A stretch of 64,000 bases of DNA from Promethearchaeia archaeon (GTDB lineage Archaea; Asgardarchaeota; Lokiarchaeia; Sigyniarchaeales; SOKP01): NCBI GenBank assembly GCA_029856085.1, contig JAHQWI010000184.1, positions 2,972 through 66,971 on the forward strand, given 5' to 3'. Below, piece by piece: positions 18,761 through 54,667 of this stretch; positions within the stretch are counted from its first letter, which is position 1, and the number at the start of each line of letters is the position of its first letter. Below the pieces are notes generated by a model that saw only the letters and a list, made by a program, of their open reading frames with translations, was not told the origin of the DNA and made no database searches. The position numbers were made by a program, and so were the translations under genes.

Positions 18761-21700
18761 ATGCAAAATCCAGAAGAATTAGCTCAAGAAGCTTTAAAAT
18801 TTTTAGAACTAGCTCAAAAGTTTGAAGAAGAAAAAATGGCAGAAGAGGCAATCTCAAATTATCAAAAAGCAGTGGAATTTCTGAAAAAAAGCGGATATTT
18901 AATGCATAGAATTAATGAGATATATGAAAGAATAGAGGAATTGAAAGATTTCATAAAACAGAAAAAGTTATATCAACAGACTCAAATTAAGACTCAAGTA
19001 GAACAACTCCAAGACCAAGCATTTGCCTTATTAGAAGGGGCTAAAAAATTAGAATTTGATGGCTTTTTTGAAGATGCTATCCAACAATATTTATCGGCTA
19101 TTAATTTATTAAATCAATCTGGTTGGTCTGAAACTCAGTTAGAAAACTTAAGATTAAAAATAAAAGATCTTTCCGATACCTTAAAAAAGGAACAAGGTAT
19201 TCATCAAAAACAACAAAAAGAACTGACTCCTCCTGAGGAATATCTACAAAAAATAGAAGATATAAAACCTGAAGTTGTTGGTATGTTTGGGGAAACAGCA
19301 AGTAGAGAAAAAGCAGAATCTATAGCCCGATATAGATCTAGGAAGATGCAAGAGGAAGAAACACAAAATCATGCGTTTGCTCATATAGATAAAGCTAAAG
19401 AATTTGAAAAAGAAAGAAAATTCGATAAGGCAATATTGAATTATGAAAGCGCAATAGATTTATTAAATTCTATAGGGTGGGATGAACAAACTCAAAAAAT
19501 TAAGGTTATTATTGAGAAGCTTAAGAAAGACAAACAACAATTTGAAGACTTTCAACAAAAACAAGCTAGCATTGAAATAATAGGTAAAACAACAAGTGAA
19601 GAATCAATTGAAAAATCAGAAACAGAATTGGAAAAAGCTAAACTAATTGAATTTGAAGAAAAAAAGAAGAGAGAAGAAAATATTCAAGCAAGTGCGTTTA
19701 ACTTAATTAATATTGGAAAAAGATTCGAAAGGGAGAAAGATTATGAAAATGCCATTCAAAAATTTGAACAAGCCGTTGATTTATTCAAATCAATAGATTG
19801 GGATTCATATATTCAGCCTGTTATTAATTTAATAGAAGATATTAAAGCAAGGAAGGAAAGAGAACAAAGAGCAGGGCAATTAAAAGAAAAAAGACAAAAG
19901 GATATTACAATTCTTCAAAAATCTATATATAGAAAGCAAAAGGAAGAAATTTTTCAATCAGCAAAGGAATTGGATTTACGAAGACGACAATTTGAAGAAA
20001 AAAGAGAAGATGAAACAAAGAAGGAAAAACATTTTTTTACAATTTTAAGTAATGCTGATAGCATTTTACAGTCAAAAAATTATGAAGAGGCGATTAATGA
20101 ATATCAGGATGCTTTAAAACTTATAGAAGAATTGGGTCCTGGTTGGGAAACTTATGTTTCTAATATTAATAATACCATTTCAAATGTACAAAAATTGAAA
20201 AATTCACAACTAAAGAAAGAATATGAAGTTCAACAGAAACTAGAAAAAAGAGAAATTGAGGAATTGGAGTTTCAAAAACAAATTGCTAATCAATTAGATA
20301 AAGAGCGAGAGCATTTAAAACAAAAAGAAATTGTATTAAAAGATAAAGAAAAAGAAATAATATATTTAGAACAACGTAAAAATGTTGCATTTGAATCTTT
20401 AGATTCTGCTATAAATTATATAAACCAAGGGGATTATGATAATGCGATAATAGCTTACCAAAATGCAGGTAATATATTTGCTGAAATTCAATGGAAGGAT
20501 GAAATTCCTATAATAGAAAAGTCTATACTAAAAGTTGAAGAACTACGAAAAAACCAAAAAATTCTAAAACAAAAAAGAATGCAAGAAACGTTGGAAAGAC
20601 AGAAAGAAGATGAAGCATTCCAAAAACAGATTTCTCAATATTTAAAACAAGAACGTGAAAAATTAAAGAAAGGAGAAATAGAATTAAAAAAACGTGAGGA
20701 AGAACTAAAATATCGTGAAGAAAGAAGAGAAGCAGGATTTAAATTGCTTGAGCAAGCTCAAGATGAAGTAACCAAAGGAAATTTTGATAAAGCTATTGAG
20801 ATACTTCATTATACCACAAACTTCTTCGCTGAAGCTCAATGGCAAAATGAAATTAGTTTAATTCAAGATTCGATAATTGAAATTGAAAATAAAAAAAGAG
20901 AAGCAGAAATACAAGAGCAGATAAAATTACAAACAAAATTGGAAAGAGATAAGCAAGACAAAGCTTTTCAAAAGTTGGTAACATATGAGATTAAATCACG
21001 TCAAGAAAAACTAAAAAAACAAGAGATTATCGTTAGGGAACGCGAAAAAGAAATCGCATTTCGTGAGAAGAAAAAAGAAGAAGCGTTTAGTTTGCTAGAT
21101 GAAGCGAAAAAATTAGTATCTGTTAATAACTATGATGCTGTTCTTGAAATATATTATAGAGTATTAAACTTGTTTGCCCAGATTCAATGGAAAGAAGAAA
21201 TTTCAATATTAAAAGAAGCAATACAAGATATAGAGGAAAAGAGGAGGGAAGAAATACTTTTTAAACAGAAACAATTGCAAATAGCTGTTAAAAAAGAAGT
21301 AGATGATAAAGTTTTTATCGAAAAAATTAAATATCAGAGAGAAAGAGAAAAACAAGAAGCTCTTACAGATTTAGAATTTATTGAAAAGCAAAAGAAAATA
21401 TCTGCTCAGAATTTAACTAAACAACAGGAAGCTTTTATAATGATTGAAGGAGGAGAAAATCTACTTCAAGTTGAGAAATATGAGGAGGCTGCAAAAAATT
21501 ATCGGAAAGCAATAGAGATATTAAAAGAGATTGGCTGGGGAACGGATTATTTGAAATTATTAAAGGAAACAATATTCACAATACAATCTAGAAAATTAGA
21601 AAAAGAAAAAGAGACCCAAATTGAATTTGAATTAAAATTAAAACATCAAAAAGAAGAAGAACAATTTCAAAAGAAAATTTCTGGATATCTGAAAACAGAA

Positions 21701-24700
21701 CAAGAGCGAATTAAAGCAAAACAAATACAATTTCAAAAACGCGAAGAAATGTTAGATATTATTGAAACACGTAAATCAGAAGCTTTTAGTATGATGGATA
21801 AAGCAGAGAATTTATTAGACCAAGGTCAATATAACGAATCAATAGAACATTACAGGCAAGCTGAATTAAATTTAAATGAAATTGGTTTTCCAACTGATCT
21901 TATTAGAGAAACTATTCAAAAGATTCAAGAAAAAAGAAGAGAGGAAGAATTAAATAAATTTAAAGAATTAGAGATGAGTCTCAGAAAAGAACAAGAAGAT
22001 TTGGCATTTCAACAACAAATTTCTGAAAAAGTAAGACTGGAACAGGAAAAAATGAGAGCAAAGCAGGAGAAACTAAAGAAACAGGAGGAAATTAGGTTAT
22101 TAATCGAAAAGAAAGAAGAAAACGCATTTAATATATTAGAAAAAGCACAAACCAACATTGCTAAGGGAGAATTTGATAAAGCAATTGTTTTATATCAAGA
22201 AGCATCTGAGATTTTTACAGAAATTCATTGGGATGATGAAATTAAGTTAATTCAGAACTCAATCAGAGATGTTGCGAATAAAAAGCGTGAAGCTGAATTG
22301 AAAAAACAGAGAGAGTTAGAAGAAGCTTTAGAACATGAAAAACTTGAAAACGCGTTTCAAGAACAAATCGTAATAGAAATTACAAGTCAAAGAGAACAAA
22401 TAAAACAAAGAGAAATTGTCCTCAGAAAAAAAGAAAAAGAAATTGCTTATCGCGAGGAACAAAAGGAAATAGCGTTCAATTTATTAGATGAAGCTCAAGC
22501 TCTTCTCTCACAAGGAAAATATGATAACGCACTCAAATTATATAATAATGTTGCCAATATATTTGCTCAAATTCAATGGGTTGATGAGATTCCTATAATT
22601 CAAGAAGCAGTAAATGATATCAAGAAGATAAAAAGAGAAAAAGATATCATACAACAAAGAGAATTAGAAAAAGCAATAGAAGATGAAAAAGGTAATTATG
22701 CTTTTCTGGAGCAAATTAAAGTTCATAAAGAACGAGAAAAAGCAATGGCAATGAGGGAACTGGAATCAATAGAAATACAAAAAAAAGCAACAACTCATAA
22801 TTTAATAAAACAGCAAGAAGCATTTAAACAAATTGAAGAAGGGGATGAATTACTTAAACAAAATAACTTTGAAAACGCCTTAAACAAATATAATGAAGCT
22901 ATTACTATTTTAACCGAAATTGGGTGGACTGGGGCTTATTTAAAATTATTGAATGATACTATTAGTACAATCAAGAGTAGGAAAAGAGAATTAGAAGAAG
23001 CCAAAAGATTAAAACAGCAATTATCAATTAGACAACTAAAAGAAGAGGAAAAATTCCAGAAAAAGGTTTTCGAATCTATTCAGAGTGAAAAAGAGAGATT
23101 AAAAGAAAAAGAAATCCAAATTCAAAAACAAGAGGAATTACTAAAATTATTGGAAAAAAGAAAGTCAGAAGCATTTGAATTAATGCATGGTGCTGAAAAA
23201 ATTTTAAGTAAAGGTCAATATGAGCAAGCGATTGAAAAGTACCGTCAAGCAGAATTAATATTATATGAAATCGGATTTCCTACTGGAGCAGTTAAGGAAA
23301 TGATAAATAAAATTCAAGCGAAGAACAGAGAAGAAATCATTTCAAAGCAGAAAGATTTGGAGAATATGTTAAGAAAAGAAAGCGAAGAACTTCAGTTTCA
23401 GAGAAAAATCGCTGAAAGTATACAAATAAATGAAATGAAGATGAAAACTAACCAGAAAGAATTTGAAAGACAAAGGGAATATTATGAGTACATGGAGAAA
23501 AGAAAGAATGAAGCTTTTGAACTCCTTGAAGAAGCAGAAATCTATATGAACCAAGCTCAATATGATAAATCTCTTGAATATTATCGTTCTGCTGAAATTT
23601 TACTAAATGAAATAGCCTTCCCAACTGAAGCTATTCGAGAAATGATTCAAAAAGTTCAAGAAAAGAAAAAAGGACATCAACTACAGAAACAAAAAGAACT
23701 AGAGCTAAAACTTCTAAAGGAAAGGGAAGAATGGGAGTTTCAGCACAACATTACCGAACAATTTAAAGAAGAAACAGAAAGATTACAAGTAAAACAAGTA
23801 CAAATTGAGGAAATGGAAAATTTGAAAGCAAAGCTTGAAAATAGAAAACAAGATGCTTTTAAGATTTTGGATGATGCAGAGGATTCATTAAAAAGATTTG
23901 AATATGAGAAAGCAATTGAAAGTTACAGAAGAGCAGAATTAATTTTAAATGAATTGCGTTTCCCGACGGATTCGATTAAGAGTATGGTAATGAAGGTTAG
24001 ACAAGTAATAAAGCAAAAGGAAGAAATACAAGAATTACAATTTCAAAGAGAACTAGAAAAAGTACAGGAAGAAAAAGATTTACAATTGCTTATTGAAGAA
24101 AGGCAAAGACAAGAAAGAGAAAAGAAAAAAGCCCAACTATTAGCACTTCAAGAAAGAGAAAGAATCATTCAAGAACAAATGAGTATAAGAGAATCTGCTT
24201 ATTCTATGTTAGAAGAAGCAGGGAAGTATCTGAAACAATTAATCCCCGACTACAATAAAGCTATTTCTTTATATGTTCAATCTAGGAATCTTTTAGCAGA
24301 AAATATAGGATGGGATCTTGAAATAAATAATTTAAATGCCTTGATCAAGGATTTACAGCAAGAGCAGGTTAATTATCAAGAAAAAAAACGATTAGAGGAA
24401 CAAGCGCGAGTCCAAAGACAGAAAGAATATGAATTATTCCAAGAAGAAGTTAAAGCAAGAAGATTAGAACAAGAAAAGCTAAAGAGAGAACAAGAAAGGC
24501 AATATAGGGAACTAATTCTAAGCAAACGTAGAATAGATGAAATTAAAGATGAGGGATTAAAATTAATAGATGAAGGTAAAAAGTGGGGAGCATATCATGA
24601 CTTTAAGAGAGCGTATCAAAATTTTGAGATGGCAAAAGGAAAGTTCAAGGATATTGGTTGGCTTGAAGAAATAAAATATATTGAAACTGAAATAAAAAAT

Positions 24701-25123
24701 ACGAAAGCTCTTGAAGAAAGAGTTGAAGGTGAGGAATTAAAAATCCAAAATCTTCAAGATCAATTAGAGAAGCAGAGAGTATTAGAAGAAAGTCGCAGAA
24801 AAACAGAAGAAGCGCAATTGAGAGAAACTGTTGGAGACGTTAGTAATCTAGCTAATGAGGTTATTAATTTAATTGAAGAAAGGAGAAAACAACAAGAAAT
24901 AACAGATACACAGAAAAAAGAGGAGATAAAGTATGAAGCAAAAGAATTTAGACGAATGATGGGAGATATAATAAAGATAAAAGAAGAGCTAATTAAAGAA
25001 TTAGAAACAAAAGAAATTGAAAAACGAGATTTCCAAGAAAAATTACAAAGGGCTAAAGAGAGAGAAGAAATAGATAATTTAAAAAGGATAATTAAAGAAG
25101 CGGGGAAAAAGGAAAAAAAATAA
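18761..25123 (+). CDS. Giant (2120 aa) repeat protein: about 18 MIT/TPR-like three-helix units separated by K/E/Q/R-rich coiled-coil linkers
   Basis: A single uninterrupted ORF. The recurring unit is AF-x-LL-x-x-A-x(5-7)-G-x-Y(F)-D/E-x-A-I-x-x-Y-x-x-A-x-x-I/L-F/L-x-E-I-(Q/G)-W (or G-F-P-T), about every 115 aa. Confidence 0.85.
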   Translation: MQNPEELAQEALKFLELAQKFEEEKMAEEAISNYQKAVEFLKKSGYLMHRINEIYERIEELKDFIKQKKLYQQTQIKTQVEQLQDQAFALLEGAKKLEFDGFFEDAIQQYLSAINLLNQSGWSETQLENLRLKIKDLSDTLKKEQGIHQKQQKELTPPEEYLQKIEDIKPEVVGMFGETASREKAESIARYRSRKMQEEETQNHAFAHIDKAKEFEKERKFDKAILNYESAIDLLNSIGWDEQTQKIKVIIEKLKKDKQQFEDFQQKQASIEIIGKTTSEESIEKSETELEKAKLIEFEEKKKREENIQASAFNLINIGKRFEREKDYENAIQKFEQAVDLFKSIDWDSYIQPVINLIEDIKARKEREQRAGQLKEKRQKDITILQKSIYRKQKEEIFQSAKELDLRRRQFEEKREDETKKEKHFFTILSNADSILQSKNYEEAINEYQDALKLIEELGPGWETYVSNINNTISNVQKLKNSQLKKEYEVQQKLEKREIEELEFQKQIANQLDKEREHLKQKEIVLKDKEKEIIYLEQRKNVAFESLDSAINYINQGDYDNAIIAYQNAGNIFAEIQWKDEIPIIEKSILKVEELRKNQKILKQKRMQETLERQKEDEAFQKQISQYLKQEREKLKKGEIELKKREEELKYREERREAGFKLLEQAQDEVTKGNFDKAIEILHYTTNFFAEAQWQNEISLIQDSIIEIENKKREAEIQEQIKLQTKLERDKQDKAFQKLVTYEIKSRQEKLKKQEIIVREREKEIAFREKKKEEAFSLLDEAKKLVSVNNYDAVLEIYYRVLNLFAQIQWKEEISILKEAIQDIEEKRREEILFKQKQLQIAVKKEVDDKVFIEKIKYQREREKQEALTDLEFIEKQKKISAQNLTKQQEAFIMIEGGENLLQVEKYEEAAKNYRKAIEILKEIGWGTDYLKLLKETIFTIQSRKLEKEKETQIEFELKLKHQKEEEQFQKKISGYLKTEQERIKAKQIQFQKREEMLDIIETRKSEAFSMMDKAENLLDQGQYNESIEHYRQAELNLNEIGFPTDLIRETIQKIQEKRREEELNKFKELEMSLRKEQEDLAFQQQISEKVRLEQEKMRAKQEKLKKQEEIRLLIEKKEENAFNILEKAQTNIAKGEFDKAIVLYQEASEIFTEIHWDDEIKLIQNSIRDVANKKREAELKKQRELEEALEHEKLENAFQEQIVIEITSQREQIKQREIVLRKKEKEIAYREEQKEIAFNLLDEAQALLSQGKYDNALKLYNNVANIFAQIQWVDEIPIIQEAVNDIKKIKREKDIIQQRELEKAIEDEKGNYAFLEQIKVHKEREKAMAMRELESIEIQKKATTHNLIKQQEAFKQIEEGDELLKQNNFENALNKYNEAITILTEIGWTGAYLKLLNDTISTIKSRKRELEEAKRLKQQLSIRQLKEEEKFQKKVFESIQSEKERLKEKEIQIQKQEELLKLLEKRKSEAFELMHGAEKILSKGQYEQAIEKYRQAELILYEIGFPTGAVKEMINKIQAKNREEIISKQKDLENMLRKESEELQFQRKIAESIQINEMKMKTNQKEFERQREYYEYMEKRKNEAFELLEEAEIYMNQAQYDKSLEYYRSAEILLNEIAFPTEAIREMIQKVQEKKKGHQLQKQKELELKLLKEREEWEFQHNITEQFKEETERLQVKQVQIEEMENLKAKLENRKQDAFKILDDAEDSLKRFEYEKAIESYRRAELILNELRFPTDSIKSMVMKVRQVIKQKEEIQELQFQRELEKVQEEKDLQLLIEERQRQEREKKKAQLLALQERERIIQEQMSIRESAYSMLEEAGKYLKQLIPDYNKAISLYVQSRNLLAENIGWDLEINNLNALIKDLQQEQVNYQEKKRLEEQARVQRQKEYELFQEEVKARRLEQEKLKREQERQYRELILSKRRIDEIKDEGLKLIDEGKKWGAYHDFKRAYQNFEMAKGKFKDIGWLEEIKYIETEIKNTKALEERVEGEELKIQNLQDQLEKQRVLEESRRKTEEAQLRETVGDVSNLANEVINLIEERRKQQEITDTQKKEEIKYEAKEFRRMMGDIIKIKEELIKELETKEIEKRDFQEKLQRAKEREEIDNLKRIIKEAGKKEKK
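20640..23430 (+). repeat. Tandem ~1.39-kb (about 462 aa, four-unit) super-repeat inside the giant ORF
   Basis: Units 7-10 match units 11-14 one-to-one. Examples: NLTKQQEAFIMIEGGENLL..EIGWGTDYLKLLKETIFTIQSRK versus NLIKQQEAFKQIEEGDELL..EIGWTGAYLKLLNDTISTIKSRK, and EIGFPTDLIRETIQKIQEK versus EIGFPTGAVKEMINKIQAK. The offset between matching motifs is ~1386-1390 nt. Boundaries are approximate. Confidence 0.6.
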
Positions 25124-25245: not shown

Positions 25246-26874
25246 ATGAGGATATTTGGAATGACTGAAAAAATTGAAGATGTTGTTAAGGCACGTATGT
25301 ATGCTCGACAACAGCTTATTGACGGATGGGATCAAGACATCATAAATGAAGGATGTATTATAATCATCGGAGTAGGCGCGTTAAGAATATTATAATTAAT
25401 AAATTTCGCGAATGGCTGTGAAATCGCTAAAGATTTCGCTCTGATGGGTATAGGTAAATTAATATTAGTTGATCTTGATACAATTGAAACGTCTAACTTG
25501 TCTCGTCAAATGCTATTTAGACCTGGAGATGAGGGACGCCCAAAAGCAGAAGTCGCAGCTGAACGACTAAAAGAAATGAATCCGTATTTAAATATTGATT
25601 TTTACTTTGAAAAACTCCAAAAGTTGTCGATGTCAGTTTATGAAGAATCAGACGTAGTTGTCGCTGCTTTAGATAACTTTAATGCAAGATTAGATTTGAA
25701 CAAAATCTGCCTTAGAATGAAAAAACCCATGGTTGAGGGAGGTACAGTAGGTTTTGAAGGACATGTGCAAATCGTAATTCCTGAAGGTACAGGATTAAGA
25801 TATAAAAATAAAAAAAATGAAATTGAAAATTTAGTAGAAGCAAGACTTTGGGAAATAACGGATACTGAATATCCTGATTATTATAGGGCTCAAAGAGAAA
25901 TTGAATTATTAGAAGAGGAAATTGAACGAATAAAGAATGCAAGAATCTATCCTATAGTCAATAAAATAAAAAAAGAAATTGAATTGGTTTTTGATTGGAA
26001 ATATGCCCCTGAGTTTTTAGACCAAACACCATGTTATAGATGTTTAGTTCCAATTCCTCCTGCTGATGATAAATTAGTAGCTGCGTGCACTTTAAAAGGG
26101 TTACCCCGTAATAGAAATCATTGTGTTATCAAAGCTGAAGTCGAATTTGAAAAAAAATACAGTCATAAGCCAGATCTCAATTTAAATGATGAAGTTCTTA
26201 AGTTAATGGAGATTGCCCAAGTAGAATTAGAAAATCTAAGAGAAAGAGTATTTAATGAGAATGTTCCTTCAGAAGAGAGGGATTCTTTAACCAAAGAACA
26301 AATTGAAGATTGGAAAAAAAATATTAGAGAGACATTCGGACCAGATTATAAGTTTGAGGAAATGGAAAATATTTTGGGAAATAAAATAGCTGCGATACAA
26401 ACTGTTAGTTCTATTATCTCTAGTATTCAATCTCAAGAAGCGTTAAAACTTTTATTCAGAGTTAATGGAAGAAATATTGGACCCCCAATGGATCCTCCGT
26501 ATGTCAATTATAATGGTATCTATGGTCAATTTGATCACTTAAATATCCTAAAAAGAGATGATTGCCTTGCTTGCGGAAAAATAGAAGGAGAAGAAAATGT
26601 TCAAATTGTAGTTCCTTTTGATGCGAATGTAGGTTATATATTTGAAGCAATGGAAATTTCAGGACATATGTTAGATTCAGAATTATGGATGATTACGAAT
26701 CCTATGACTAAAGAAATCTATTGGAATCCATATATGCCTTCATTGAAAGACCCAGAGGTAAAACTGACTTCTCTAAAAATAAAGAGCAATGATATAGTTA
26801 CGCTGAGTCCGTTAGGAAAGGCATTAGCAGAATCAGAAATAAAAAAGTTTAATGTCGTAATCGCTTTTATGTAG
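25246..26874 (+). CDS. Ubiquitin-activating E1-like enzyme (ThiF/MoeB/UBA fold), interrupted in its GxGxxG loop by a 30-nt stop-containing insert (putative BHB intron)
   Basis: The upstream piece reads M(RIFGM)TEKIEDVVKARMYARQQLIDGWDQDIINEGCIIIIGVGA. It continues in the same frame after the insert as GCEIAKDFALMGIGKLILVDLDTIETSNLSRQMLFR. The zinc motifs PCYRC and CLACG are present. In-frame TAA at 25393-95. Confidence 0.8.
25383..25412 (+). other. Putative BHB-type intron in the E1-like gene (30 nt)
   Basis: A 4-bp helix CGCG(25377-80)/CGCG(25407-10) is flanked by 3-nt bulges UUA(25381-83) and AAU(25411-13). Cutting after the 2nd bulge nucleotide joins GCG UU|U GGC to give GVGAFGCE, in frame and with the stop removed. 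No convincing outer helix was found. Confidence 0.5.
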
Positions 26875-26894: not shown

Positions 26895-27500
26895 TTACAG
26901 GTTTCTTTTTTTTACTAAATTTATTAAATCGTCTATTAAGTATGCATCAATTCCAGCATTTTCTCCTGTCAAAAGGTCATTTTCTAAATCTCCGAAATAC
27001 ACCATTTCTTCTTTTTTTATCTTGAAATAATTTTGAATTTTTATAAGTCCCTCTGGAGCGGGTTTCCATTTCCTCACATCTTCCCTACCTATAATAAGTT
27101 CTATTTTATCATGTATGTTAGCTAATACTAAAGCCTGGATTATTGTATCTCTAACATTAAGTGATAGAATTGCAAATTTAGCATTATTTTTTACACCAAA
27201 TAACTCCTTGCTTTTTATGAAAAAAATTGTCTCCTCTATTAGCTGGGTATCTCTTATATTTTCTAGCTCATAATGCCGTATTACGCCAAAGAAATTCTCT
27301 AAAATATTTTCGTCATTTTTCTCTACTATTTTTTCTAAACATATTGAAATCCTTTTAAAATCACATTGTTCTTTATATATTTCTCTATATTTCTCAACTA
27401 AATTCTCTTTTAAAGCCATCCAATCCACTATTAAATTAACGATAGTACCATCAAGATCAAAAATTATGACTTTCTTTTCTGTAAATGAGATATTGTTCAT
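26895..27500 (-). CDS. HAD-superfamily hydrolase (phosphatase-like)
   Basis: Motif I IIFDLDGTIV and a C-terminal GD-x-x-x-D (YFGDLENDLL). Confidence 0.75.
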   Translation of the reverse strand: MNNISFTEKKVIIFDLDGTIVNLIVDWMALKENLVEKYREIYKEQCDFKRISICLEKIVEKNDENILENFFGVIRHYELENIRDTQLIEETIFFIKSKELFGVKNNAKFAILSLNVRDTIIQALVLANIHDKIELIIGREDVRKWKPAPEGLIKIQNYFKIKKEEMVYFGDLENDLLTGENAGIDAYLIDDLINLVKKRNL

Positions 27501-27528: not shown

Positions 27529-28401
27529 TTATATTTGCCTATAAAACAGTACTTGGTACCCAACTTTATGAAAAGGACATTTCTCTATACATACAGAACA
27601 TCCAGTCGTTTCATAGAAATATTCAAAACATTTTTTACTATCTATGCGTGTTACTGTTCCATTTTCATTAACAACTGGTTCATCCAAAATAGCATTGACA
27701 GGACAAAAATTAATACACCTTCTACATTTCTCACAAAACTTAGAAATTTCAAATTCTTCATGCTTATTTTCTGGCAGTGGCCCTGCTTTTATTGAGATCA
27801 ATGATAATCTTTGTCTTGGCCCAAATTTCTTTGTGATCAAGAGCCCCTGACTGCCTATTTCCCCCATATTCGCCTTAACTGCCATGGCAGGATAAAGAAT
27901 TGGTCCACCTAAGGGGTGACAAGCGATTGCTCTATAGCCTTTAGAACGAATGAAATCTGCAAGCTGATTTGTAGCCTCTCCTAATTCTGCATATATCCTT
28001 AAAGACTCTAAACCCGCAGGAGGATTAGGGGCAGTATTAATGGCATCATAATCCATTTCCATCCCCAATACAATTCCATTTTCATATAATAACTCAATAG
28101 CACCTATATAATCATTCTCAAAAATTAGATTTTCATCAATAGGAGCAAACCCAATAAGATCGATTCCTAATGACTTAGCCATCTGATTAATTTCATCCCA
28201 CAATTCTTCTGGGGCTGTTTTTATTTCTTGGGGTAGATCTTTGATCTCATTTTTATAATCTCTTCTAGCTTTTTGGATCCCCTTAAACATTTTTGGGATT
28301 ATTTTTGAAGCGTCTTCTGCTAAGTGCTCCTGAAATGAAGAGATTTTAAATTTAGTGTTGTCAATAAACTTCGCTTTTAATCCTTTTGATTTTTTAATCA
28401 A
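27529..28401 (-). CDS. 4Fe-4S dicluster protein of the QueG / reductive-dehalogenase-like family
   Basis: C-terminal CEKCRRCINFCP and CSVCIEKCP ferredoxin motifs follow a ~200-aa N-terminal domain. Confidence 0.45.
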   Translation of the reverse strand: MIKKSKGLKAKFIDNTKFKISSFQEHLAEDASKIIPKMFKGIQKARRDYKNEIKDLPQEIKTAPEELWDEINQMAKSLGIDLIGFAPIDENLIFENDYIGAIELLYENGIVLGMEMDYDAINTAPNPPAGLESLRIYAELGEATNQLADFIRSKGYRAIACHPLGGPILYPAMAVKANMGEIGSQGLLITKKFGPRQRLSLISIKAGPLPENKHEEFEISKFCEKCRRCINFCPVNAILDEPVVNENGTVTRIDSKKCFEYFYETTGCSVCIEKCPFHKVGYQVLFYRQI

Positions 28402-52010: not shown

Positions 52011-52113
52011 TGGGGACTGAGGGATTTGAACCCCCGACCGACAGGTGTCCACGGAACAGCTTTTGCTTGTAGGATCTGGAGCCTGCTGTGCCACCGGGCT
52101 ACACCAAGTCCCC
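52011..52113 (-). tRNA. tRNA-Trp (CCA) with a 29-nt intron at the canonical 37/38 site
   Basis: Acceptor GGGGACU/AGUCCCC plus A73. D arm GUGU-AGCCCGGUG-GCAC. Anticodon stem GCAGG/CCUGU, loop CU-CCA-G|..|A (anticodon 52079-52077). T arm GGGGG-UUCAAAU-CCCUC. Intron at 52047-52075. No encoded CCA. Confidence 0.9.
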
Positions 52114-54432: not shown

Positions 54433-54667
54433 ATGCCTGGTTCTCATGGGAGTTTGACTAAAGCTGGAAACTCATTCTAGAAAGACTAGATGAGCTAGAG
54501 AAGTCAAAATGCAAACTCCTAAAATTGCAAGGTCAGGAGTGAATTCTCGAAAGAAGAAATCTCCAAGAATGCGATTTCGGGATTTATATAAAGCTCGATT
54601 TGTTGATGGTCGATTTGGAGGTCAACAAGATAGTATTGGGGCTAAAAGAGCTCAATTTAAAAGATAA
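54433..54667 (+). CDS. rps30e: Ribosomal protein eS30 (S30e), split by a 31-nt BHB intron (exons 54433-54469 and 54501-54667)
   Basis: Exon 1 reads MPGSHGSLTKAG-. Exon 2 reads -KVKMQTPKIARSGVNSRKKKSPRMRFRDLYKARFVDGRFGGQQDSIGAKRAQFKR*. The join gives 204 nt (67 aa), matching the conserved SHGSLTKAGKV.xQTPK core. The unspliced frame stops at TAG 54478. Confidence 0.8.
54470..54500 (+). other. BHB (endonuclease-type) intron in rps30e
   Basis: H helix CUGG(54464-67)/CUAG(54495-98). Bulges AAA(54468-70) and AGA(54499-501). Inner hairpin 54471-94. Outer helix UUUGACU(54453-59)/AGUCAAA(54502-08). Confidence 0.75.

Follow-up and report, generated by a model that had tools for sequence, protein, structure and literature searches.

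Evidence for a bulge-helix-bulge intron in the ATP-binding loop of an E1-like gene from a Lokiarchaeia-type archaeon

How can a gene whose nucleotide-binding loop is interrupted by a stop codon still encode an enzyme? The question is raised by an E1-like (ThiF/UBA) gene in the DNA analyzed here, a stretch of 64,000 nucleotides (nt) of contig JAHQWI010000184.1 from a Promethearchaeia archaeon (about 30% GC; the whole stretch is called the window below). In this gene, a 30-nt, in-frame insert containing a stop codon lies between the leucine and the following glycine of the nucleotide-binding loop, GxGxxG. We read positions 25384–25413 as an archaeal bulge-helix-bulge (BHB) intron in the coding sequence of a eukaryote-type E1-like gene of a Lokiarchaeia/Promethearchaeota archaeon, with a probability of roughly 0.8. 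The recurrence of the insert, the junction, covariation, constraint on exonic bases, selection on the exons, a second case in the gene rps30e, and the literature together led us to this reading. An mRNA intron of the BHB type, removed by the tRNA splicing machinery that would act on several mRNAs (rps30e among them), was already the core idea of the initial annotation, and the comparative evidence supports it well.

The interrupted gene and its orthologues

The open reading frame (ORF) that begins at 25246 reads ...EGCIIIIGVGAL-RIL and ends at a TAA (25393–25395), after which the sequence resumes in the unchanged frame as LINFAN-GCEIAKDFALMGIGK, just as had been described. The called ORF of 476 amino acids (aa; 25444–26874) initiates at the methionine of MGIGK, and no ATG, GTG, or TTG occurs from the intron stop to its ATG at 25444. 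That this ORF lacks part of the loop, also claimed initially, is borne out by the Pfam ThiF profile (238 positions), which aligns with the 476-aa ORF from position 42 (164 bits) and with the repaired protein from position 10 (196 bits); the E-value of the E1-like protein is 7e-58. The true start is probably ATG 25261 (MTEK...) and not the upstream in-frame ATG 25246, because the orthologues are 527 aa long with the N-termini MTEK or MxEK, and splicing from 25261 also gives 527 aa, in place of the 532 aa proposed before. On the forward strand, the gene would consist of a 5' exon of 41 codons (25261–25383, MTEK...IIIIGVGAL), a 30-nt phase-0 intron (25384–25413, agaauauuauaauuaauaaauuucgcgaau) carrying the in-frame TAA, and a 3' exon (25414–26874, GCEIAKDFALMGIGK... 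to the stop) that includes ten codons (25414–25443) upstream of the first methionine.

The homologues are 527-aa proteins of Promethearchaeota (Lokiarchaeia-type Asgard metagenome-assembled genomes, MAGs) named 'ThiF family adenylyltransferase' or 'ubiquitin-activating enzyme E1 C'. In a comparison with the PDB, the best solved relatives were the eukaryotic UBA1, UBA6, and UBA7 (1e-39 to 1e-32), and weaker matches were found to UBA3 (1e-28), SAE2 (1e-26), MoeB (1e-24), and ThiF (4e-22). The restored GVGALGCE aligns with GAGAIGCE in the active adenylation domain of human UBA1, where the residue facing the junction leucine is isoleucine. With its ThiF adenylation domain, its GxGxxGCE loop, and a position nearer to the UBA enzymes than to MoeB or ThiF, the protein justifies the label 'E1-like', since UBA1, UBA6, and UBA7 outrank MoeB and ThiF among the PDB matches.

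The initial annotation had asked whether orthologues in related genomes carry the insert at the same codon. The loci compared were those of 80 species-representative genomes, supplemented with matches to a DNA pattern in metagenomes and with loci reached through 476-, 488-, and 490-aa 'truncated' database proteins. A stop-containing insert at the identical codon was found in six of the 80 species-representative loci (L017, L026, L058, L066, L079, and L080; 70–83% protein identity), in four further loci from the metagenome scan, and in eight further loci from the truncated proteins. In total, 19 loci with 13–14 distinct variants carry the insert, always 30 nt long and at one codon boundary, in proteins with identities as low as about 71% and with an invariant length at a DNA p-distance of 0.27. 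These loci were assembled by different projects and are taken from NCBI, ENA, and JGI. Two of them from different metagenomes, L081 (98% DNA identity to the window) and L084 (95%), have an identical intron and represent separate strains. Each variant contains at least one in-frame stop, some contain two, and TAA, TAG, and TGA are all in use. The insert is absent from 71–72 loci, all of which read GxGALGCE with nothing between the leucine and the glycine. The recurrence lies far beyond chance: 71–72 uninterrupted orthologues stand beside 19 loci with a 30-nt insert at one codon boundary.

In the public MAGs (the six loci named above and L081–L092), the gene is annotated as an orphan ORF of 41–49 aa followed by a ThiF protein of 476, 488, or 490 aa. 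The annotated ThiF piece begins inside the insert (GTG-AAA-GGC, giving MKGCEIAK) or at the methionine of MGIGK, and half of the GxGxxG loop is missing from it.

Structure of the insert and position of the junction

Twelve variants were aligned without gaps, with column n corresponding to window position 25363+n. In the supported register (all positions on the forward strand), exon bases 25375–25381 of the pre-mRNA would pair with intron and exon bases 25408–25417 to form a 3-bp outer helix and a central helix of 3–4 bp. The outer helix (h) pairs the exonic strands GGC (25375–25377) and GCU (25415–25417) through G25375-U25417, G25376-C25416, and C25377-G25415, and 91.7% of its cells are paired across the variants. 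The central helix (H) joins the exonic GCGU (25378–25381) to the intronic gcga (25408–25411) through C25379-G25410, G25380-C25409, and U25381-G25408. The interior of the intron would fold into a 9-bp hairpin (inner helix h', 25385–25393 with 25399–25407 and a 5-nt loop at 25394–25398; 88% of cells paired), in which seven of the nine pairs form in the window and eight or nine in the other variants. Two 3-nt bulges, UA|a (25382–25384) and au|G (25412–25414), would be exposed on opposite strands: the former separates the central and inner helices in all variants and is sharply defined, and the latter, between the central and outer helices, is bounded by a weak fourth central pair and the 3-bp outer helix. 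The initial annotation had noted no evident outer helix and only a weak AU hairpin inside the insert; in the shifted register the former is supplied by GGC and GCU, and the latter proves to be a 9-bp hairpin conserved with double substitutions. Helices thus flank the bulges on both sides, and the 4-bp central helix is present in relaxed form, as three conserved pairs (C-G; G-C or A-U; U-G or U-A). By the classification of PMC5829648 and PMC6379350, the predicted motif would be placed between the canonical and relaxed BHB forms.

The substitutions among the variants point to this structure. In the whole BHB model, 86.5% of cells are paired over the 12 variants, versus 25–45% when the 3' partners are slid. 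Five pairs are changed on both sides, namely 17:46 (G-C to A-U, in the L017 clade), 22:44 (G-C to A-U, in L086), 23:43, 25:41, and 26:40; four of the five belong to the inner hairpin. In addition, U-G is replaced by U-A at pair 18:45 in two lineages. The observed covariation was reached by none of 500 shuffles, a control without phylogenetic correction. RNAalifold independently returned the same central and inner helices, and for L058 the plain minimum-energy fold is the proposed BHB structure. A covariance model of the 43-nt core found only the E1 site in the window (70 bits; the next best hit scored 13 bits).

The exonic strands are constrained as well. The exonic helix and bulge bases fall on third-codon positions. 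In all 14 intron-bearing genes these bases are fixed (Gly GGY, Ala GCR, Leu NTA), whereas intronless genes vary freely, only five of 71 having the same combination (Fisher p = 3e-12, not corrected for phylogeny). At the Gly codon alone, C or T is the third base in all 14 intron-bearing genes versus 33 of the 71 intronless ones.

EndA cuts between the second and third residues of a bulge (PMC2738675). Applied to the supported register, this rule places the cuts at 25383/25384 and 25413/25414, removes 25384–25413, and joins GCG-UUA|GGC-UGU, giving GVGALGCE, the sequence found in the 71–72 intronless orthologues. The best-supported intron would therefore lie one base to the right of the junction proposed before. 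In Asgard archaea, EndA is reported to be a broad-specificity (alpha-beta)2 enzyme with an L1 loop that cleaves relaxed motifs (PMC5829648). Cutting by EndA and joining by RtcB would be the most likely mechanism: the tolerant Asgard EndA would cleave each bulge after its second nucleotide, and RtcB would ligate the exons to ...GVGAL|GCEIAK..., yielding a 527-aa enzyme with an intact ATP-binding loop. Translation of an unspliced message would end at the TAA at 25393–25395 and give no active E1.

The strongest competitor assumes the same mechanism in the register of the initial annotation, in which CGCG at 25377–25380 pairs with CGCG at 25407–25410, the bulges are UUA and AAU, and the cuts fall at 25382|25383 and 25412|25413. 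Both tetranucleotides are present, and when the window sequence is folded by itself, their four-G-C helix is the pairing of lowest energy. Moreover, the intron ends in 'a' in seven of the 12 variants, in which both registers yield leucine, and the products differ only for window-like variants. The arithmetic of removing 25383–25412 was also correct, in that it produces GVGAFGCE; the junction itself does not hold up, because phenylalanine would appear in the window-type variants and every one of the 71–72 intronless orthologues has leucine. Covariation in this register is at the chance level (282 of 500 shuffles reach its score). Pair 16:45 is broken in four of the 12 variants and pair 17:44 in three, and both the deep clade and L089 have an internal mismatch. 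In two separate lineages, column 45 has changed from g to a, which retains the pair with U18 and breaks the one with C16. This register also has no outer helix, competes with the covarying inner-hairpin pair 22:44, and is not the one chosen by RNAalifold. We therefore regard it as unlikely. At 25364–25433, the CGCG:CGCG and shifted pairings are mutually exclusive, and only the shifted one leads to leucine; the two might compete in vivo.

Several points weigh against a BHB intron. The motif is relaxed: the fourth central pair (G25378/A25411) is a G/A mismatch in the window-type variants and a G-U pair in the deep clade, and the outer helix has just 3 bp, all formed in nine of the 12 variants, with two of the three pairs in the deep clade. 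The fold is weak, at about -2 kcal/mol at 37 °C for the proposed structure with a z-score of -0.19 for the 70-nt region, and RNAfold prefers the CGCG:CGCG pairing when given the window sequence alone; the single-sequence thermodynamics are not significant and were used for neither register. The covariation derives from few independent events in about four lineages, and the shuffle control ignores phylogeny. Since BHB-like motifs occur at chance frequency in a genome of 30% GC, the motif alone proves nothing. Finally, splicing at the RNA level is a step that we infer, and the 120 matches listed include no intact protein that exceeds about 91% identity to an intron-bearing gene and could represent a spliced transcript or a very recent loss.

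Selection on the exons and alternative explanations

Both exons are under purifying selection. Among the intron-bearing genes only, the ratio of non-synonymous to synonymous differences per site (pN/pS) stands at 0.20 in exon 1 and at 0.09 in exon 2. The ten codons from the intron to the first methionine (GCEIAKDFAL) show a pN/pS of 0.013, with 240 synonymous versus 11 non-synonymous differences. In the deep clade, as in the window, no ATG, GTG, or TTG occurs between the insert stop and the methionine of MGIGK; the TAA there abuts GGG directly. Because of this absence of a start codon, the ten codons would be legible only if the insert is missing from the message.

This result bears most directly on the idea of a truly split gene, in which an N-terminal peptide of 41–49 aa would bind non-covalently to a C-terminal protein with a start of its own, or only the latter would be used. 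Gene callers do report two ORFs in every intron-bearing MAG, and the GTG inside the insert of the L017 group could initiate MKGCEIAK.... The window and the deep clade have no such start, and the intervening codons are nonetheless among the constrained ones. A split would also part the halves of a single glycine-rich nucleotide-binding loop, and the changes in the insert preserve a structure, unlike those expected of a translation-coupling signal. We consider a split gene very improbable.

Ribosomal recoding, either by stop readthrough with a 10-residue insertion in the P-loop or by a 30-nt bypass as in phage T4 gene 60, would fit with an insert that is in frame and with a hairpin over the stop, as seen at some recoding sites. 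However, TAA, TAG, and TGA are each found at the stop position, a second stop is present in several variants, and the insert shows no conservation when its 'codons' are read as amino acids. The take-off and landing codons for a bypass do not match (Leu UUA versus AAU, AAA, or UAA), with the stop lying three codons downstream; the GCG...GCG repeat is limited to the window-type variants and would give ANG. In addition, rps30e requires the removal of 31 nt, a change of frame. There is little reason, in our judgment, to favor recoding. Selenocysteine/pyrrolysine (Sec/Pyl) or other codon-specific recoding was rejected because TAA, TAG, and TGA all occur at the stop position.

The insert could also be a dispersed mobile mini-element, a palindrome similar to miniature inverted-repeat transposable elements, that landed in the E1-like gene and was tolerated. 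It is indeed a short AT-rich palindromic hairpin with a patchy distribution on the gene tree. Against a dispersed element, the covariance model matched nothing but the E1 site, whether across the 64 kb of the window or across 717 kb of related loci; every lineage carries the insert at one and the same position, its divergence tracks that of the host gene, and no target-site duplication is present. Furthermore, this proposal concerns the origin of the insert only and would still require its removal at the RNA level. It is hardly probable.

With regard to origin, a neighbor-joining tree of 89 spliced proteins places the intron in at least four separate groups. Two of these groups, the window with L084 (versus L001, L002, and L005) and L026 with L091 (versus L021, L009, and L011), are nested among intronless sequences. 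Between such close relatives, the nesting would imply that the intron was lost exactly several times or that a copy lacking it took the place of the gene, and lateral replacement may be the alternative to exact loss. On this approximate tree, the intron looks old, single-copy, and vertically inherited with repeated exact losses, a history also proposed for cbf5: the covariance model finds a single site, and the introns have diverged in parallel with their host genes.

An in-frame stop in an essential motif and the metagenomic source might suggest a pseudogene in decay, or an error of sequencing or assembly, but the same 30-nt element in 19 loci of independent projects and separate strains, its invariant length, and the strong purifying selection on both exons make this almost negligible, and it is refuted as far as sequence data allow. 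The initial annotation had kept a pseudogene or a split gene in reserve, and frameshifts or stops elsewhere in the orthologues would have spoken for the former; when the insert was removed in silico, no other stop or frameshift was found in any of the 12 representative intron-bearing genes, and the constraint on the exons disposes of both fallbacks. A self-splicing group I or group II intron was rejected since the insert is just 30 nt long and Rfam returned nothing here at its gathering thresholds.

Further predicted introns in the window, known systems, and gene neighborhood

A second mRNA intron is predicted in rps30e, on the forward strand of the same window. From its ATG at 54433, the gene reads MPGSHGSLTKAG, runs into a stretch full of stops, and continues in the +1 frame. 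Folded without constraints, 54451–54520 form a textbook BHB at minimum energy, with an outer helix, a central helix between CUGG (54464–54467) and CUAG (54495–54498), an inner hairpin, and AAA and AGA as the bulges. Cutting by the canonical rule would remove 31 nt (54470–54500), with a frame shift of +1, and join the exons 54433–54469 and 54501–54667 to give MPGSHGSLTKAGKVKMQTPK..., a 67-aa protein that matches S30e orthologues of 67–68 aa from end to end at identities reaching 96% (Pfam Ribosomal_S30). At the junction, G12-K13-V14 do not vary among the orthologues, and the canonical cut restores the invariant AGKVK. Cutting at the bulges thus yields an orthologue-like product for E1 and rps30e alike, and the two introns have no sequence relation.

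The window also contains a tRNA-Trp(CCA) gene on the reverse strand (52011–52113) with a 29-nt intron (about 52047–52075). Rfam detected it as a tRNA at 49 bits, the anticodon loop carrying a 33-nt insertion, and ARAGORN missed it. Its BHB departs slightly from the canonical form: the central helix has a C/U mismatch, or else the register is shifted by one. Within this genome, the tRNA would be a conventional substrate of the machinery proposed for the mRNAs, and its intron implies that the host possesses that machinery. With the E1, rps30e, and tRNA-Trp introns in one window, the BHB cut rule seems to have made three correct predictions.

Searches for more introns in the window were not informative. 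A generic BHB descriptor matched about 2,800–3,000 times per strand, versus about 2,550 in shuffled sequences, and so does not discriminate at 30% GC. A screen combining BHB architecture with the merging of ORFs gave hundreds of matches, and a stricter one requiring both frames to be closed in the unspliced state gave 157, versus 158–192 for slid decoy geometries, which is noise. A Pfam check of the other adjacent same-strand ORF pairs in the window revealed no further evident split gene.

The cbf5 pre-mRNA intron was reportedly the subject of work by Watanabe in 2002 and Yoshinari in 2006. EndA-dependent mRNA splicing is established for this crenarchaeal gene, with an intron in the coding sequence, and for Haloferax HVO_1309, with one in the 5' untranslated region (PMC10485636, PMC7714728); a 2023 review counts a minimum of two genes in archaea and expects more (PMC10485636). 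The E1 intron would join this known but very rare kind. It resembles the cbf5 intron of Desulfurococcales and Sulfolobales (Yokobori 2009, PMC2738675) in being short, of the BHB type, and in a coding sequence, with a relaxed ('unconventional') motif. In both cases the host lineage has a hetero-oligomeric (alpha-beta)2 EndA, the cut falls between the second and third bulge residues, an active-site element is disrupted so that splicing is obligatory, the intron has been lost in specific lineages, and annotation routinely misses it or mis-calls the gene. The differences are that cbf5 is a pseudouridine synthase gene of Crenarchaeota whereas the present host is an E1-like gene of Asgard/Lokiarchaeia, that the introns are unrelated in sequence, and that cbf5 splicing was demonstrated by cDNA and in vitro cleavage while that of E1 is deduced from sequence only. 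Unlike in the cbf5 case, a second intron-bearing gene, rps30e, is located in the same 64 kb. Membership in the cbf5-type intron family was rejected on the grounds of the ThiF/UBA host gene and its occurrence in Promethearchaeota; the two represent the same class and different families.

HVO_1309 of Haloferax volcanii (PMC7714728, PMC10485636) is likewise an mRNA substrate of the archaeal splicing endonuclease recognized through a BHB, but its intron is in the 5' untranslated region and its enzyme is of the alpha2 type, whereas the E1 intron lies in the coding sequence, where splicing would be needed for the content of the reading frame. Archaeal pre-tRNA introns share with the E1 intron the h-B-H-B-h' architecture, the size (29 nt versus 30–31 nt), and the presumed use of EndA and RtcB; here, in contrast, the substrate is an mRNA whose exonic helix strands double as codons, so that the helix bases are constrained synonymous sites. 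In eukaryotes, the HAC1 and XBP1 mRNAs are cut without a spliceosome by the protein endonuclease Ire1 at sites defined by stem-loops, and the metazoan exons are joined by RtcB. As in the E1-like gene, splicing is required there for an active protein; the enzyme is Ire1 and not EndA/TSEN, the recognition motif is a different one, and the process is stress-regulated, so that no homology is implied. A full-text literature search, which covered the journals in part, turned up no description of a BHB intron from an Asgard mRNA or from any E1 gene.

So far, cbf5 and HVO_1309 are the only archaeal mRNAs accepted as targets of the tRNA-splicing endonuclease. If the BHB reading is correct, two more mRNA introns, both in coding sequences, would be added, in the Asgard archaea, the lineage closest to eukaryotes, and one of the two would reside in the ATP-binding loop of the E1 of an archaeal ubiquitin system. 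The 13–14 covarying variants, with the intronless genes as controls, would form a natural substrate set for the recognition of relaxed mRNA motifs by (alpha-beta)2 EndA, and repeated exact intron loss would be documented. At least 19 public loci would mis-annotate E1, an error that surveys of Asgard ubiquitin genes, phylogenies, and expression constructs would inherit. It is conceivable, though we would wager slightly against it, that Lokiarchaeia-type Asgard archaea harbor a whole population of EndA-spliced introns of about 30 nt in housekeeping and 'eukaryotic signature' genes, ancient, vertically inherited, and repeatedly lost exactly, with splicing as a regular layer of expression. Introns so widespread could permit regulation, for example as an on/off gate on the ubiquitin system, and introns would account, as annotation artefacts, for a sizeable share of the ORFs called 'truncated' or 'orphan' in Asgard MAGs.

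Directly upstream of the E1-like gene, the window encodes a 2,120-aa protein (18761–25123, forward strand) with repeated coiled-coil units of TPR/MIT-like character, which is syntenic in every related locus examined (2,122–2,124 aa there). About 1.3 kb downstream of the E1-like gene, after genes for a methyltransferase and a HAD hydrolase, a UQ_con (E2-like) gene is present in L085 (4284–4467) and L086 (4164–4343). The corresponding stretch of the window is occupied instead by a HAD hydrolase (26895–27500) and a 290-aa ferredoxin-type protein (27529–28401), both on the reverse strand.

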